This document shows positions 1 to 6,088 of a DNA stretch of 6,088 nucleotides, piece after piece. The DNA is from a virus (lineage: Duplodnaviria > Heunggongvirae > Uroviricota > Caudoviricetes). The first letter of the stretch is position 1, and each line of letters opens with the position of its first letter. The DNA is taken from IMG/VR virus record IMGVR_UViG_2585427765_000006. One strand, given 5' to 3'. Both the position numbers and the translations under genes were made by a program. The notes below the pieces were generated by a model. It made no database searches and had not been told where the DNA came from. It was given only the letters and a program-made list of their open reading frames with translations.

Positions 1-465
1 GATTACTGGAACAACTGGCTCAGGGACGTGTTGATGGCAGCTGGCTGAAATATCTGAAACAGTTGCAAAAAATACAGGTTCTAATCCTGGACGATCTGGG
101 GCTGGAACAGTTAAGTAACGCCCAGTGTAATGACCTTCTGGAGCTCATAGAGGATCGTTACGGACAAAGCAGCACGATAGTGGTAAGTCAGTTCCCGGTA
201 GATAAATGGCATGGTCTGATGGAGAACCCAACAACAGCAGATGCCATCCTGGACAGACTGGTACATAACTCACACCGGGTGGTCCTTCAGGGAGAGTCAC
301 TGAGGAAAAATCCCCCGGTAGTGGAAAGCAGCGAAAAAACGCGTTAAAAAGCGGTAGAAAAAGTTAAGTTCCCGGTTGATCGAATGGATGCGAATCGCTG
401 ATCGGACTTCGATGCCAATCCGTGATCGAATAGAGCGGAATACGCACTTACCCGAAAACCACTCA
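1..465 (+). mobile_element. Right-hand end of an IS21-family insertion sequence (partial; the element continues upstream of the window)
   Basis: Contains the 3' end of an istB-like gene, followed by a non-coding stretch (348-465) with repeated GATCGAAT / GCGAATCG / CGGAATACG motifs (about 378-444), consistent with the multiple terminal repeats of IS21-family ends. Exact right terminus not determinable; the downstream capsid frame opens at 434 (TAG at 431-433), so the junction lies roughly within 434-470. Confidence 0.7.
3..347 (+). CDS. istB: IstB-like transposition helper ATPase, C-terminal portion (5' truncated by window edge)
   Basis: The frame is open from position 3 to TAA at 345-347. 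Translation shows a Walker-B-like VLILDDLG followed by TIVVSQFP...W...ADAILDRLVHNSHRVVLQGESLR, the characteristic C-terminal signature of IS21-family IstB proteins. Confidence 0.85.
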   Translation, partial: LLEQLAQGRVDGSWLKYLKQLQKIQVLILDDLGLEQLSNAQCNDLLELIEDRYGQSSTIVVSQFPVDKWHGLMENPTTADAILDRLVHNSHRVVLQGESLRKNPPVVESSEKTR

Positions 466-1063
466 GGAAATTATCGATTTTTCCGAAGTCGATATTATGG
501 GCTGGTTATCTTCTGAAATTGGCGACACTTTCGTTGATACCGAAGAAACGGATCTGGTTTCCGGTGATGGCGAGAAAAAAGCCAAAGGTTTCCTGACTTT
601 CCCGCGCACTACGGATAATGACAAAACCCGTCCTTTCGGTACGCTCCAGACGAAAAAAGTGACTGGCAGTCTCAGCGCCGATATGCTGATTGACCTGAAA
701 TTTACGCTGCGCAATAAGTACCGCAAAAAAGCTGTATGGGTGATGAACTCAAATACAGCCGCCTCCGCACAAAAACTGAAAAATGCCACTGGTGATTACA
801 TCTGGCGCGATCGTTTACAGGCTGGTGATCCTGATTCTCTGCTGGGGCTTCCGGTTGAATATCTGGAATTTATGCCGGACGGTGTGATTGCAGTCGGTGA
901 CTTTAAGCGCGGTTATTTCATCGTTGACCATAAAACCGGTACGCGTACCCGTCCGGATTTCAGCGAGCCTGGATTCATTAACATCTATACCCAGAAATAT
1001 CTGGGCGGTGGTGTGGTGGATTCGAACGCCATCAAGATTCTGGAAATTCAGGCTGGCAAGTAA
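466..1063 (+). pseudogene. HK97-fold phage major capsid protein, C-terminal fragment; N-terminal part separated by the IS insertion
   Basis: Translation (…EIIDFSEVDIMGWLSSEIGDTFVDTEETDLVSGDGEKKAKGFLTFP … LLGLPVEYLEFMPDGVIAVGDFKRGYFIVDHKTG … NAIKILEIQAGK) matches the conserved middle and C-terminal blocks of HK97-family capsid proteins (GDG..K.KGFL block; LWGLPVV-like block; GDF..G block). No plausible N-terminus or RBS; the frame runs directly into IS terminal sequence. Start coordinate approximate (±30 bp). Stop TAA at 1061-1063. Confidence 0.75.
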
Positions 1064-1068
1064 TGAGC

Positions 1069-1092
1069 AAAGGGGGCTTCGGCCTCCTTTTT
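1069..1092 (+). terminator. Rho-independent terminator candidate immediately after the capsid gene
   Basis: AAAGGGGGC (1069-1077) / UUCG loop (1078-1081) / GCCUCCUUU (1082-1090) forms a 7-9 bp GC-rich stem (one G·U pair) with a UUCG tetraloop, followed by a T-run (1088-1092). Lies 6 nt after the capsid stop codon. Confidence 0.6.
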
Positions 1093-1112
1093 CAGCTTTA
1101 TGGAGTACACCG

Positions 1113-1673
1113 ATGAAAAACACCGATTTTGAAATCCGTACATCTGAACTGACCGCCAGCGATAAAAAACTGGTGGGTTATGCCGTTCGCTGGAACAGCC
1201 TTTCAGAAATTATCTGGGACGAGTTTCGCGAACAGTTCACGCCGGGGGCTTTTGCTGACTATCTGGCGGCAGGTAATGATGTGCGCTGTCTGTATGAGCA
1301 TGACTATACCCAACTGCTGGGGCGTACCAAATCCGGCTCACTGGTACTGACTGAGGATAACACCGGGCTACGTTTTGAACTGACACCGCCAAATACCCAG
1401 CTTGGAAAAGATGTGCTTACGCTGGTGGAACGTGGCGACATTACAGGGATGAGCTTTGGCTTTCGCGCATTATGCGAGGAGTGGAATATCGCGCAAAAAC
1501 CGTATCTGCGTACTGTAACCGCCGCAGAACTCCGTGAAATCACGATAACATCGATGCCTGCTTATCCCGAATCCGGCGTGGAGATTGCCCACCGTTCGTT
1601 GTTTGCACAGTACCCTGAATTACGCCCGGCAGGAAATAATCGTCATCGCTGGGCTGAACTGGCGGGGTTGTGA
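1113..1673 (+). CDS. HK97-family prohead (head maturation) protease
   Basis: ATG at 1113 preceded by GGAG (1102-1105). Translation (…LVGYAVRWNSLSEI…FTPGAF…VRCLYEHDYTQLLGRTKSGSLVLTEDNTGLRFELTPP…DITGMSFGFRAL…) shows the typical prohead protease layout. The ORF-track 888..1673 entry is an upstream extension of the same frame overlapping the capsid gene. Confidence 0.88.
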   Translation: MKNTDFEIRTSELTASDKKLVGYAVRWNSLSEIIWDEFREQFTPGAFADYLAAGNDVRCLYEHDYTQLLGRTKSGSLVLTEDNTGLRFELTPPNTQLGKDVLTLVERGDITGMSFGFRALCEEWNIAQKPYLRTVTAAELREITITSMPAYPESGVEIAHRSLFAQYPELRPAGNNRHRWAELAGL

Positions 1674-1674
1674 T

Positions 1675-2889
1675 ATGTGGTGGCCTTTTAGTCGTAAAAA
1701 AAGCGATCTGCGTAACCTGTCCATTGATGATTTTCTGGCGTTGTCTGGTGTACCAAATACCGGATCCGGAGAATATGTTTCTGCCGGGACGGCTGAATCA
1801 TTGCCTGCTGTGATGAACGCGGTTTCTGTCATCGCTGAGGCGGTGGCCACGATGCCGTGTTACCTGTATCTGGTACGCAATGATAAGGGCAGAGAGGCGC
1901 GGGAATGGCAGGACAGTCACCCGGTAGATATTCTGCTGAATGAGCAGCCTAATTCGTGCCTGACACCTTACCAGTTTAAACGCACAATGATGCGTCACTG
2001 CCTGCTGAACGGTAACGCCTATGCGGTTATTGAGTGGGGGCGGGACGGGCAGCCAAAATCACTTCATCCTTATGCGCCGGGGTGTGTTGTACCGGAACGC
2101 ACAGGCACACACAAATACCGCTATACCATCACCGAACCCTGTACAGGAACGGTGCGCACGTATTTACAGGAAGAAGTTCTGCATCTCCGCTATGCCTCGG
2201 ATGATGGCTTTCTGGGGCGTTCCCCCGTCACGATTTGCCGTGAGGCGCTGGGGCTTGGCCTTGCTCAACAGCGTCACGGAGCCAGCATTATGAAAGATGG
2301 CATGATGGCGGCAGGGATTATCACGTCAGGTGAATGGCTGGACGGCGTGAAAGGTAAACAGGCATTAGACGCACTGGAACGCTACAAGGGGGCGAAAAAT
2401 GCCGGAAAAACGCCAATCCTTGAAGGGGGCATGGATTACAGGCAGCTGGGGATGAGTAACCAGGATGCGGAATGGCTGGCCTCCCGTCGCTTCTCCATTG
2501 AAGACATCGCCAGGATGTTCAACGTGTCGCCGATTTTTCTTCAGGAATACAGCAACAGCACCTACAGCAATTTCAGTGAGGCGAGCCGCGCATTTCTGAC
2601 CATGACAATGCGCCCGTGGCTGGCGAACTTCGAACAGCAAATCAAGGCCGCTTTGCTGGTGACTTCTCCCGTACCTGGTACCCGTTATCTGGTTGAGTTT
2701 GATTCAGCCGATTTACTGCGCGCCACACCCACCGAACGTTATGCCACGTATGAGAAAGGGATTAAGAGCGGGATCATGAATCCGAACGAAGCTCGCGAAC
2801 GCGAGGGTATGCCGCCGCGTGAAGGTGGTGATGAGTTCAGCCAGGCATGGAAACAGACTGTGGAAATTAAAGGGAGAAAAGATGAGTGA
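1675..2889 (+). CDS. Phage portal protein (HK97 family)
   Basis: ATG at 1675 is 1 nt after the protease stop (TGA 1671-1673), suggesting translational coupling. The 404-aa translation contains portal-type blocks (…NGNAYAVIEW…GRSPVTICREALGLGLA…NAGKTPILEGGMDYRQLGMSNQDAEWLASRRFSIEDIARMFNVSPIFL…SNFSEASRAFLTMTMRPWL…). Confidence 0.88.
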   Translation: MWWPFSRKKSDLRNLSIDDFLALSGVPNTGSGEYVSAGTAESLPAVMNAVSVIAEAVATMPCYLYLVRNDKGREAREWQDSHPVDILLNEQPNSCLTPYQFKRTMMRHCLLNGNAYAVIEWGRDGQPKSLHPYAPGCVVPERTGTHKYRYTITEPCTGTVRTYLQEEVLHLRYASDDGFLGRSPVTICREALGLGLAQQRHGASIMKDGMMAAGIITSGEWLDGVKGKQALDALERYKGAKNAGKTPILEGGMDYRQLGMSNQDAEWLASRRFSIEDIARMFNVSPIFLQEYSNSTYSNFSEASRAFLTMTMRPWLANFEQQIKAALLVTSPVPGTRYLVEFDSADLLRATPTERYATYEKGIKSGIMNPNEAREREGMPPREGGDEFSQAWKQTVEIKGRKDE

Positions 2890-3184
2890 AGCCAGAATTA
2901 CACCTGATGAAGTCAGGGCACATCTTCGACTTGATGATGATTTATCCGGTGAAGGCGAACTTCTGAAAATGTATACCGATGCGGCGCTGGAAGCCTGCCA
3001 GAAGCATATCGGGAAACGTTTTGAAGACGGGCTGGAATTTACCCCGGCAATGCGTGTTGGTTGCCTGATGTACATCGCTTTCCTGTACGAGAACAGGGAA
3101 GCAGTTTCACCAGTGGAGCAGTCTGAACTGCCTATGGCTATTTCTGCGCTCTGGTCGGTTTATCGTGATGTGGGGGTGTACTGA
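2882..3184 (+). CDS. gp6-like head-tail connector (head completion) protein
   Basis: ATG at 2882 with AGGGAG (2871-2876) upstream; overlaps the portal stop by 8 nt. Translation starts MSEARITPDEVRAHLRLDDDLSGEGELL…, typical of gp6-like connector N-termini (…AHLR.DDD…). About 100 aa. Confidence 0.75.
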   Translation: MSEARITPDEVRAHLRLDDDLSGEGELLKMYTDAALEACQKHIGKRFEDGLEFTPAMRVGCLMYIAFLYENREAVSPVEQSELPMAISALWSVYRDVGVY

Positions 3185-3624
3185 TGCCGTGGCAACCATT
3201 AAGGCGATGCACTGAGCCGGGCTGTAATAAGCGCGTGAAGTCCGGCAAGTGTGAAGAGCACAGACGGGCTGTATGGCGTGCAGAGGATGCCAGACGGGGA
3301 CACCGCCGCGCGCGCGGGTATTCCCGACAGTGGGACAAATACCGCGCCCTGTACCTGAGCAAAAACCCGTTATGCGTGCGTTGTCTGGCTAAGGGGATTT
3401 ATACGCCAGCTCTTGTGGTGGATCACATCATCCCCATCAATGGCGGCGGTGATGTTCTCTTCTGGCCTGAGTGGAACCACCAGGCATTGTGCCAGACGTG
3501 CCACAACCGTAAGACGACACGGGAAGATCCAGCCACGAAAGCGAACCGTAAGGCGGGCATGTATCGCGAGCAGGAAGAACGGGCAGCACACCGTAACGAC
3601 TGGATGTATGGCGATGATGACTGA
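3184..3624 (+). CDS. HNH endonuclease (terminase-associated)
   Basis: ATG at 3184 overlaps the connector stop (cTGATG). Translation has an N-terminal Cys cluster (CTEPGCNKRVKSGKCEEH) and the HNH core (VVDHIIPINGGGDVLFWPEWNHQALCQTCHNRKT). It sits directly upstream of terS, as in cos-type HK97-like packaging modules. Confidence 0.88.
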   Translation: MPWQPLRRCTEPGCNKRVKSGKCEEHRRAVWRAEDARRGHRRARGYSRQWDKYRALYLSKNPLCVRCLAKGIYTPALVVDHIIPINGGGDVLFWPEWNHQALCQTCHNRKTTREDPATKANRKAGMYREQEERAAHRNDWMYGDDD

Positions 3625-3793
3625 ACAGGAGCAAACCAGGCTGATACGTGGACTGATAAGGCAGCGTGACTTATGGAAGACACAGGAGACAGGGCACAAA
3701 GCCAACAGGACAGGGCGCACAGAACGCACCACAGCGAAGCAATTAACCGACCGTGACCGCGAGGTCATGGAATGTTTTCGCAATCGCTGGTGA
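3608..3793 (+). CDS. Hypothetical small basic protein (about 58-61 aa), uncertain
   Basis: ORF MAMMTEQEQTRLIRGLIRQRDLWKTQETGHKANRTGRTERTTAKQLTDRDREVMECFRNRW fills most of the HNH-terS gap (alternative ATGs at 3608/3614/3617). No recognisable motif or clear RBS; it overlaps a DNA-level direct repeat, so it may be non-coding. Confidence 0.2.
   Translation: MAMMTEQEQTRLIRGLIRQRDLWKTQETGHKANRTGRTERTTAKQLTDRDREVMECFRNRW
3682..3723. repeat. Imperfect tandem direct repeat, ~21 bp unit, containing GACAGGGC twice
   Basis: acaggagacagggcacaaagc (3682-3702) followed by acaggacagggcgcacaga (3705-3723). GACAGGGC occurs at 3688-3695 and 3709-3716, 21 bp apart (two helical turns). Confidence 0.5.
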
Positions 3794-3867
3794 GGCCGTC
3801 AGAGGGGGTGGGGGTGGTTTTCAGGACGAAACCGTCCCTGCCGGACACCGACCGCCTCCTCAAATTT

Positions 3868-3896
3868 TTGTGCACGGGAATTTTTTTGAAAATAAT
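3868..3896 (+). promoter_or_regulatory. Candidate sigma70-like promoter upstream of terS
   Basis: TTGTGC (3868-3873), a 17-nt AT-rich spacer, then AATAAT (3891-3896), about 16 nt upstream of the terS ATG (3913). Only a partial match to consensus; no experimental support. Confidence 0.3.
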
Positions 3897-3912
3897 TGGG
3901 CGAAAAAAGAAC

Positions 3913-4269
3913 ATGGCAAGACCACCAAAAGCCCCCGCTTACCTGGATGAAATCGCGGTCAGGCAGTGGAAGGAAAAATCGCGCCAGCTTTCCGGACGGG
4001 AAGACCTTACTCCCGCCGACTGGAGCAATCTGGAGCTGTATTGCGTTAACTACTCCATATACCGCAAAGCCGTCGAAGACCTTGCCACGCGCGGGTTCAG
4101 CATTGTTAACAGTCAGGGCAGCGAGAGCAGAAACCCCGCCCTGAGCGCAAAGGCTGACGCTGAAAGAATAATGATCAAAATGGCTTCTTTGCTGGGTTTT
4201 GACCCGGTAAGTCGCCGCAGAAATCCACCGGAAACAGAGGAAGAGGACGAGCTTGACCGCCTGGCATGA
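3913..4269 (+). CDS. terS: Phage terminase small subunit (P27-like family)
   Basis: Translation MARPPKAPAYLDEIAVRQWKEKSRQLSGREDLTPADWSNLELYCVNYSIYRKAVEDLA… (118 aa) matches the N-terminal pattern and size of P27-family small terminases. The ORF-track start at 3772 is an upstream extension; ATG 3913 gives the typical size. Acidic C-terminus. Confidence 0.8.
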   Translation: MARPPKAPAYLDEIAVRQWKEKSRQLSGREDLTPADWSNLELYCVNYSIYRKAVEDLATRGFSIVNSQGSESRNPALSAKADAERIMIKMASLLGFDPVSRRRNPPETEEEDELDRLA

Positions 4270-5914
4270 GTACGCAGAAGGCGTAAAAAACAGCAAAATT
4301 ACGGCCTGTAAACGACTGAAACAGGCCGTTAAACGGTATTTTTCTGACCTTGAAAACCCCCTTTACACGTTCGATCCGGAGGTCGTGGAGCGGTTTATTG
4401 CCTTTTCCAGGGTGTGTCCGCACGTAAAAGGCGCAATGCGCGGTAGCCCCATTGAGCTGGAGCCGTGGCAGCAGTTCGCCTTTGCGTGCATCCTGGGCTT
4501 TAAGGTTAAGGCCACCGGACGGCGCAAATACACCAGCGCATTCATTGAAGTGCCGCGAAAAAATGCCAAATCCACGGTCGCCGCTATCCTGGCTAACTGG
4601 TTTCTGGTTATGGAAAACGGGCAGCAGGATATTTACACCGCCGCCGTGAGTCGTGATCAGGCGCGGATCGTGTTTGATGATGCGCGTCAGATGTGCCTTT
4701 TATCCCGACCGTTACGAAAGCGGGTAAATATTCAGGCACACAAGGTGATACACCCGAAAACCAACAGCCTGTTAAAGCCACTGGCAGCAAAAGCGGCAAC
4801 CATTGAAGGTACAAACCCGAGTCTTGCCATTGTGGATGAATATCACCTGCACCCTGACAACGGGGTTTATTCCGCGCTTGAACTGGGAATGGGGGCGCGT
4901 CCGGAGGGGCTGTTATTTGCCATCACCACATCGGGGAGCAACGTTGTTTCAGCCTGTAAACAACACTATGACTATTGCTGCCAGATACTGGATGGTGAAG
5001 AGGTGAACGAATCCATGTTCGTGCTGATTTACGAGCTGGATGATGAAAGCGAGGTTGACGATCCGGCGATGTGGATAAAGGCGAATCCCAATATCGATGT
5101 TTCCGTCGATCGTGAAAAACTGGCCTCAACCATCCAGAAAGCGCGGGGTATTCCGTCGCAGTGGGTGGAAATGCTCACCAAGCGATTCAATATCTGGTGT
5201 CAGGGGGCTACGCCGTGGATGGGTAACGGTGCATGGGCGGAGTGCGCCGGAACGTTCGCGGAGGCGGATTTATACGGTCAGGAGTGCTACGCGGGGCTGG
5301 ACTTATCATCAACCAGCGATATTTCCAGCGTGTGCTATGCCTTTCCGGTCGGTAAAAAGATTATGCTGGTTTCCCGTCACTATCTGCCGGAATTTCAGCT
5401 ACAGAACCCCGCCAATAAAAACCGCGCCATCTATCGCCAGTGGGTAAAGGCGGGCTGGATACGCACAACACCGGGTGACTGCATTGATTATGACCGTATC
5501 CGTGATGACATCATGGCGGATGCAGAGAATTTCAATATCAGGCTGGTGGGCTTCGATACATGGAACGCCACGCACCTGAGGACGCAGCTACAGGGGGCAG
5601 GATTTGAGGTGGAGCCGTTCCCGCAAACATACCTTCGTTTCAGTCCGGCGGCGAAATCGTTCGAAGTTTTTGTTAACCGGAAGGTGATTGTGCATCGTGG
5701 CGATCCGGTGCTGGCCTGGTCAATGAGTAATGTTGTGATGCAGAGTGACGCGAACGCCAATATCAAGCCGAACAAGAAAAAATCATCCAACAAGATAGAC
5801 CCGAGCGTTGCGGCGCTGATGGCGTTTGGCACATTCCAGGCAGAGCATGAGGAATTTGCATTTGATATGAGCGACAGCCACAAAGAGCGGCTTGCGGCGT
5901 TTGATGGGGTATGA
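4253..5914 (+). CDS. terL: Phage terminase large subunit (ATPase plus nuclease)
   Basis: 553-codon ORF. Putative TTG start at 4253 with GAGGA (4243-4247) 5 nt upstream, overlapping the terS end by 17 nt; the start codon is uncertain. Contains a Walker-A-like EVPRKNAKST, a Walker-B-like LAIVDEYH, and C-terminal nuclease-type acidic blocks (GLDLSSTSD, VGFDTWNA, KIDPSVAALMA). Confidence 0.92.
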   Translation: MTAWHEYAEGVKNSKITACKRLKQAVKRYFSDLENPLYTFDPEVVERFIAFSRVCPHVKGAMRGSPIELEPWQQFAFACILGFKVKATGRRKYTSAFIEVPRKNAKSTVAAILANWFLVMENGQQDIYTAAVSRDQARIVFDDARQMCLLSRPLRKRVNIQAHKVIHPKTNSLLKPLAAKAATIEGTNPSLAIVDEYHLHPDNGVYSALELGMGARPEGLLFAITTSGSNVVSACKQHYDYCCQILDGEEVNESMFVLIYELDDESEVDDPAMWIKANPNIDVSVDREKLASTIQKARGIPSQWVEMLTKRFNIWCQGATPWMGNGAWAECAGTFAEADLYGQECYAGLDLSSTSDISSVCYAFPVGKKIMLVSRHYLPEFQLQNPANKNRAIYRQWVKAGWIRTTPGDCIDYDRIRDDIMADAENFNIRLVGFDTWNATHLRTQLQGAGFEVEPFPQTYLRFSPAAKSFEVFVNRKVIVHRGDPVLAWSMSNVVMQSDANANIKPNKKKSSNKIDPSVAALMAFGTFQAEHEEFAFDMSDSHKERLAAFDGV

Positions 5915-6088
5915 CGAGAATGAGCGAAACCGAACTACTAAAAATAATCCGCCGCGTTACCGGAATCAGCCAGGAAGCAGGCAAACAGGAGGCCACGCAG
6001 CCGGACAGCGTGATAGCCAAAAATTACGCGCGTGTGGTGGCTGAGGTGATGCGCCGTGACGGTATCGAGCTTAACGGCGTGGATATAC
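5911..6088 (+). CDS. Hypothetical protein, 5' part only (runs off the window); possibly a head-tail adaptor/joining protein
   Basis: Open frame from ATG 5911 (overlapping the terL stop as ATGA) or ATG 5920, to the window end: M(TR)MSETELLKIIRRVTGISQEAGKQEATQPDSVIAKNYARVVAEVMRRDGIELNGVDI… No recognised motif; the functional guess rests only on position. Confidence 0.4.
   Translation, partial: MTRMSETELLKIIRRVTGISQEAGKQEATQPDSVIAKNYARVVAEVMRRDGIELNGVDI

Follow-up and report, generated by a model that had tools for sequence, protein, structure and literature searches.

What is left of a phage-like element when an insertion sequence (IS) ends abruptly within what appears to be its capsid gene, which kind of element is it, and can it still move? 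These questions are raised by the first kilobase of a 6,088-bp stretch of DNA (hereafter "the window"), which is the whole of contig JOSO01000115.1 from the draft assembly GCA_000713745.1 (sequence identity verified) of E. coli strain 2-177-06, the protein record covering the left junction being titled 'Escherichia coli 2-177-06_S3_C2'. The explanation favored here, which we consider very probable as a whole, is that an IS was inserted into the major capsid gene of a capsid-forming PICI (cf-PICI), that the disrupted copy has lost its own capsids, and that the event is recent and inherited. An IS21-family element of 2,639 bp has entered the capsid gene of a ~14.8-kb cf-PICI at codons 177-179, duplicating 7 bp and leaving the gene in two pieces, i.e., a 5' fragment fused into the IS (218 aa) and a 3' fragment devoid of a start context; the split copy would then no longer package/transfer itself unless capsid protein comes in trans. 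The window represents the right-hand junction of this event, running from the last part of istB and the right end of the IS through the 3' part of the capsid gene to the intact rest of the packaging module (Table 1).

Table 1. Features of the 6,088-bp window, with the matches or observations on which each is based
Feature	Position	Strand	Evidence/remark
istB, 3' part (last 114 codons and stop)	3..347	+	Pfam IstB_IS21, positions 131-233/238, E 4.9e-29
IS right end, non-coding, with imperfect ~18-20-nt repeats, terminal ...GAATACGCA	348..446	+	Seven independent copies share this terminus
Right copy of the 7-bp target-site duplication CTTACCC	447..453	+	Same heptamer ends the capsid 5' fragment
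cf-PICI major capsid, 3' 617 nt (codon 177 second base to stop)	447..1063	+	100% identical to intact genes
188-aa ORF remnant, starting at the first in-frame ATG	497..1063	+	ORF list; upstream GATTTTTCCGAAGTCGATATT
G+C-rich hairpin followed by a T run, directly past the capsid stop	1069..1090	+	MFE -16.7 kcal/mol, z -2.2
HK97-family prohead protease	1113..1673	+	Pfam Peptidase_S78, E 4.5e-45
Portal protein	1675..2889	+	Pfam Phage_portal, E 1e-91
Head-tail connector (gp6-like)	2882..3184	+	Pfam Phage_connect_1, E 2.3e-5; NCBIfam TIGR01560, 72.6 bits
HNH endonuclease of the packaging module	3184..3624	+	Pfam HNH, E 8.8e-10
Conserved 61-aa ORF between HNH and terS	3608..3793		No Pfam/NCBIfam match
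Small terminase (P27/Terminase_4 type)	3913..4269	+	Pfam Terminase_4, E 1.6e-23
Large terminase	4253..5914	+	Pfam TerL_ATPase and TerL_nuclease
Conserved 94-aa ORF, 5' part, cut by the contig end	5920..6088	+	Hypothetical protein in E203449

The IS/capsid boundary was placed exactly at 446/447 by a megablast search of window 1-1100 against 5,426 complete E. coli genomes, hundreds of which match one side of the boundary only, the sole record running across it being NZ_CM128603.1 (strain E203449, Mali; 100% identity), where both junctions are found in one piece within a 4.99-Mb chromosome-level assembly. RefSeq annotates the region of E203449 in the order of a capsid 'incomplete, missing C-terminus', istA, istB and a capsid 'incomplete, missing N-terminus', both capsid halves being labelled as pseudogenes. 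The right junction is also present on an independent Logan read-set contig (SRR35329215), and exact-pattern scans of the genome-contig and metagenome-contig collections did not return it. The evidence for the junction is, hence, exact identity to independently sequenced copies and not a statistical call. An IstB C-terminus, then a repeat-rich IS end, then a C-terminal capsid frame, as read from the letters alone in the initial annotation, are all present according to both the profile matches and the identity to E203449.

It had further been proposed that the IS sits inside the capsid gene, and the upstream DNA agrees with this in both strains, as a 536-nt capsid 5' part abuts the IS left end in each of them. 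Contig JOSO01000136.1 of the window's own assembly carries ProQ', an 82-aa ORF, capsid nt 1-536 ending in CTTACCC and 425 nt of the IS left end (identical to the IS in E203449), while comparison of E203449 with the intact allele of strain JP538 showed the left fragment to be capsid nt 1-536 and the right one to be nt 530-1146. The heptamer CTTACCC, which occurs once in the intact capsid gene, is seen at both junctions, its left copy lying just before the IS left end (11801-11807 in locus L001 of E203449 and 1376-1382 in L040), and thus supplies the target-site duplication of 4-8 bp that was to be looked for. Removing the IS and one CTTACCC copy from E203449 leaves an open 1,146-nt frame encoding 381 aa (N79 for D79 vs. 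JP538), and joining JOSO01000136.1 to window 454-1063 also gives an open 381-aa gene, 4 nt and 1 aa different from the intact copy on JOSO01000157.1 of the same assembly, so the capsid rebuilt without the IS is, as anticipated, open and one residue off its intact homologues. The reconstructed/intact 381-aa protein matches TIGR01554 over positions 3-384 of 385 (300.1 bits), as an HK97-fold capsid protein does.

GCA_000713745.1 is a short-read draft, the window is one of its short, repeat-bounded contigs, and both the IS and the packaging module are multi-copy in that genome, which is the setting where an assembly chimera might mimic a junction without any capsid gene being really interrupted. 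We give this reading next to no credence, however, for both junctions and the duplication are found inside the E203449 assembly, the left junction recurs in a second draft assembly and the right one on the independent Logan contig, and a 7-bp duplication shared by two junctions together with an exactly restored frame are not products of a chimera. What is insecure in GCA_000713745.1 is the linkage of the junction to the downstream SNP pattern and to a chromosomal site, because the packaging module (window 456-6088) is a two-copy repeat spread over four contigs there: among the other three (JOSO01000014.1, JOSO01000078.1 and JOSO01000157.1), two start exactly at window 456 and one ends exactly at 6088, those starting at 456 running into the allC or yifB flank. 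The SNP pattern of the window may be a consensus mix of the two module copies. Apart from contigs beginning at window 456, searches with the window's TerL and portal proteins yielded only copies that have an intact capsid gene. The truncated IstB product led to JOSO01000115.1, and the 218-aa ORF expected at the left junction led to the contigs that carry this junction.

As for the two pieces of the insertion-split gene, window 447-1063 is 100% identical to the intact capsid genes of 15 or more complete genomes, and window 446-1063 covers positions 79-279 of 280 of Pfam Phage_capsid (E 2.3e-42), i.e., the C-terminal part alone. The initial annotation was right in seeing only the C-terminal part of a capsid protein here, but not in having its frame run over 466-1063, as position 466 is out of frame with the stop codon at 1061-1063; the frame ending at that stop is open over 434-1063, its first 13 nt being IS sequence. 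The lack of a start context also holds: the first start codon is the ATG at 497, and nothing resembling a Shine-Dalgarno sequence is found in the GATTTTTCCGAAGTCGATATT stretch preceding it. The residual 188-aa ORF that could be read from there is probably not expressed or not functional, judging by this context. An ATG-initiated ORF of this length might nevertheless be taken for a complete stand-alone gene beside the IS (frame 466/497-1063, encoding a short capsid-like or decoration protein), which had been named as the outcome that would overturn the insertion reading, and which is, in our opinion, exceedingly improbable: the ORF region covers the C-terminal part of the capsid profile only, the frame up to 1063 is base-for-base the 3' part of the 1,146-nt gene, no ribosome-binding site precedes the ORF, and its exact product was found elsewhere on one short Logan contig only, with the same IS junction. 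Among complete genomes, that capsid allele (>=95% identity) is uninterrupted in 47 and split in E203449 only. On the other side of the IS, the frame of the 5' capsid fragment continues through 40 codons of IS sequence; the 218-aa product (178 capsid codons and 40 IS codons) is deposited as KDX39181.1/KEO03244.1 from JOSO01000136.1 and from JNQF01000088.1 of the second draft assembly (GCA_000704005.1). This product includes the delta-domain, which serves in scaffolding, and some 85 residues of the mature protein, the break at codons 177-179 lying within the latter.

The inserted element itself is an unexceptional IS21-family member. At 100% identity, window 1-446 reproduces the final 446 nt of the 2,639-bp IS in E203449, which carries istA and istB in the same orientation as the packaging operon. 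In E203449, istB lies directly downstream of istA on the same strand, and the full-length products of both genes are recognized by family-specific profiles: IstA (511 aa, outside the window) by NCBIfam NF033546 transpos_IS21 (283.6 bits vs. a cutoff of 160) and IstB (251 aa) by NF038214 IS21_help_AAA (257.8 bits vs. a cutoff of 200). The termini are TG...CA, the right end being a non-coding stretch of 99 nt that finishes with ...CGCA, and multiple short repeats lie inside both ends, as is characteristic of the family: five repeats with a ~23-nt period at the left end, with the right-end repeats (pairs 377-395/423-441 and 387-404/411-428) being their inverted copies. Defining the terminus by comparison, as had been suggested, gave TGCAAAATGG...GAATACGCA, termini also seen in six further copies of the IS, which come from four strains and one plasmid and have target duplications of 5, 5, 6, 6, 7 and 7 bp. 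IS21-family target duplications are 4-8 bp long, and the 7 bp duplicated at the capsid gene are a short duplication of this kind. As the six other copies agree, the IS ends are correctly defined here and the 7 bp fall within the range of this IS. The IS thus shares with IS21, IS100 and others of the family the istA (DDE transposase) and istB (AAA+ helper) genes, TG...CA ends, end repeats and duplication size, and nothing unusual was found when it was set against the family. The RefSeq product label reads 'IS21-like element ISSso4 family', the name ISSso4 being taken from that label only.

The IS (>=80% of its length) was found in 226 of the 5,426 complete E. coli genomes, and in E203449 it has matches at 10 chromosomal places and on two plasmids, the best place in each of the three E203449 records being a full-length, 100%-identical copy, which points to an IS that is active in the lineage of this strain. 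Site-specific targeting was considered and rejected, since the seven target duplications show no clear consensus. Four of the seven (GTAACG, GTATT, GTATGCC and GTAAT) do start with GTA, a hint of a weak preference that CTTACCC does not follow.

Which element did the IS land in? In E203449 the split copy is inserted in yifB (L001 3501-20537) and comprises an integrase, AlpA, an Icd-like protein, small ORFs, a D5-type primase, SSB, ProQ/FinO and the head/packaging module. Its left half is of the PICI type (Phage_integrase and Arm-DNA-bind_3; Phage_AlpA, E 2.7e-18; D5_N/DUF5906/Pox_D5 primase), and Pfam recognizes the head/packaging set of cf-PICIs, namely capsid (interrupted), protease, portal, connector, HNH, TerS and TerL. 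No tail or lysis (holin) genes are annotated between the flanking repeats, where the small unnamed ORFs were partly profiled. The repeats are 17,436 bp apart with the IS vs. 14,668 and 14,402 bp in two intact relatives, corresponding to an element of about 14.4-14.8 kb without the IS. A full-length alignment links the intact capsid protein to PDB 9GYI (73.8% identity, E 3.7e-184), which is the capsid of EcCIEDL933 (10.1101/2025.02.11.637232), and both content and layout of the element match the published cf-PICI definition (10.1101/2022.09.08.507074; PMC10085698). Since all of its structural genes are phage-like (an HK97-type head module), one might wonder whether this is instead a decaying prophage stripped of its tail and lysis genes; such an origin strikes us as very unlikely for an element this small between its repeats, with a PICI-type integrase, AlpA and D5-type primase, the gene order capsid-protease-portal-connector-HNH-TerS-TerL, a content that recurs unchanged at several sites of the chromosome in many genomes, and a capsid that close to the one of an experimentally characterized cf-PICI. 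By its gene content, the host element is a cf-PICI satellite and not a prophage.

Compared with the prototype, EcCIEDL933 (~15 kb; Alqurainy et al., 10.1101/2022.09.08.507074), the element has the same modules (int, alpA, primase-rep, and capsid through TerL), both are without tail or lysis genes, and their capsids align end to end, whereas the element described here has its capsid split by an IS and sits at yifB in E203449 and not at the EDL933 site; helper induction, small capsids and transfer via hijacked tails are known only for EcCIEDL933 and a few others (10.1101/2022.09.08.507074; 10.1101/2025.02.11.637232). A Pfam search of the module identified no second head-tail adaptor, which is expected in cf-PICIs; the 94-aa ORF after terL, for which Pfam and NCBIfam gave no family match, might be it. 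The locus is therefore properly annotated as one IS-interrupted capsid pseudogene in a cf-PICI, and neither as a short capsid-like gene nor as part of a defective prophage.

The functional consequences can be approached through the prototype. Mutants of the EcCIEDL933 packaging module replicate unaffected, their transfer being abolished or, for the hypothetical gene 1792, severely reduced, and trans-complementation of packaging mutants restored titres (10.1101/2022.09.08.507074). The EcCIEDL933 capsid protein is cleaved at residue 93; its essential residues include 257, 290, 295, 319 and 345, single substitutions at 290, 319 and 345 abolishing transfer (10.1101/2025.02.11.637232). All five of these residues are C-terminal to the break point seen here, and the disrupted copy, by homology, would be unable to make its own capsids. 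E203449, however, also harbors an intact twin cf-PICI between allE and allC (L011 4669-18758), the integrase of which differs from that of the yifB copy and which shares with it the protein accessions of primase, SSB, ProQ, protease, portal, connector, HNH, TerS and TerL; the window's assembly likewise holds an intact capsid copy, on JOSO01000157.1. Capsid protein could, by analogy with the complemented mutants, be supplied in trans by the intact twin. The expectation that the insertion renders the element defective and immobilizes it is therefore upheld as far as the split capsid gene goes and true in cis only, because an intact twin co-resides and EcCIEDL933 mutants are complementable in trans. 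In this respect the case also departs from the usual IS pseudogenization of prophage/satellite genes in E. coli/Shigella: in both, one mobile element knocks out a gene that is essential to the morphogenesis of another, but here an intact twin of the target co-resides, and the loss may be masked.

Could the disrupted copy, then, still be packaged and transferred, together with its IS, on capsid protein from the twin? The near-identity of the two islands (same accessions for primase, SSB, ProQ and the module proteins from protease through TerL), the intact capsid in the window's assembly and the titres regained by complemented EcCIEDL933 packaging mutants (10.1101/2022.09.08.507074) would permit it, but we regard it as unlikely. 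The T=4 capsid of EcCIEDL933 is said to suit a genome of 15.5 kb (10.1101/2025.02.11.637232), so it is doubtful that a genome of 17.4 kb would fit such a head: the 17,436 bp with the IS stand against 14,402-14,668 bp in intact elements, and a genome about 18% longer may, as we see it, be too much for a cos-packaging small head. The 218-aa N-terminal fragment could, moreover, disturb capsid assembly. Somewhat less likely still, in our estimation, is that a twin-packaged, IS-bearing island serves as a vehicle moving an active IS21 between strains/species by tail piracy, or that the 218-aa product disturbs the capsid assembly of the twin or of related satellites that enter the cell. The preferred reading remains that of a cf-PICI copy deprived of its own capsids, and the intact and capsid-null twin islands within one genome offer a natural set-up for studying trans-complementation and the size limit of the small cf-PICI capsid.

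The insertion itself appears to be recent, since no other lesion is evident (the remaining genes of the disrupted copy are all annotated as intact in E203449), the IS shows no difference from its other copies, and the flanks are almost the same as in intact alleles. Fourteen positions separate the window from E203449, and the window therefore originates from another strain. Separate insertion events in the two strains, suspected because of these differences, were discarded, as the capsid 5' fragment is identical and the sites are shared. A single inherited insertion, common to at least two related Malian isolates, is the more likely history, given the identical 5' fragment and the same two integration sites in both strains, with flanks ~99.9% identical. 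Mechanistically, this is ordinary IS-mediated pseudogenization, already reflected in the RefSeq annotation and of low novelty, and it matters little beyond annotation; it does, nonetheless, provide a cleanly dated case in which a phage satellite is eroded by an active IS.

An IS end might also affect what lies downstream. An outward -35 element was reportedly described in IS21 tandems by Reimmann et al. in 1989, and the initial annotation had the IS end possibly supplying outward transcription into the remaining module; this suggestion found no support here, as a consensus scan of window 1-1300 returned no promoter-like or terminator-like sites, a relaxed promoter scan reached 8/12 matches at best, and a -35 element of the kind in IS21 tandems was undetectable by either scan. 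Read-through from istB into the capsid remnant/operon is possible, as the IS and the operon point the same way and istB is not followed by a terminator. The terminator-/attenuator-like hairpin between the capsid stop and the protease gene, which the consensus terminator scan had missed, may act as an attenuator setting the ratio of capsid to downstream expression.

A few observations on this and related elements deserve mention in their own right. Recurrent truncation of the capsid was considered and rejected, as the 'partial' capsids of the same 90% cluster end at contig ends without foreign tails and are assembly breaks. In a related cf-PICI on the Hadza gut metagenome contig ERZ4560393 (L005 6497-6811), listed for four samples, an in-frame 831-nt capsid deletion fuses the delta-domain to the last 8 capsid residues, an independent route to capsid loss, and another relative, in GCA_966570035.1 (L010 7424-8637), has a 1-nt gap, as compared with the window portal, that breaks its portal gene into ORFs of 259 aa and 145 aa. 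Within the window, the 119-nt intergenic stretch before terS (3794-3912) contains G-runs and a T-rich tract (GGGGGTGGGGGTGG...AATTTTTTTG) and may be where the cos site or packaging signal lies.
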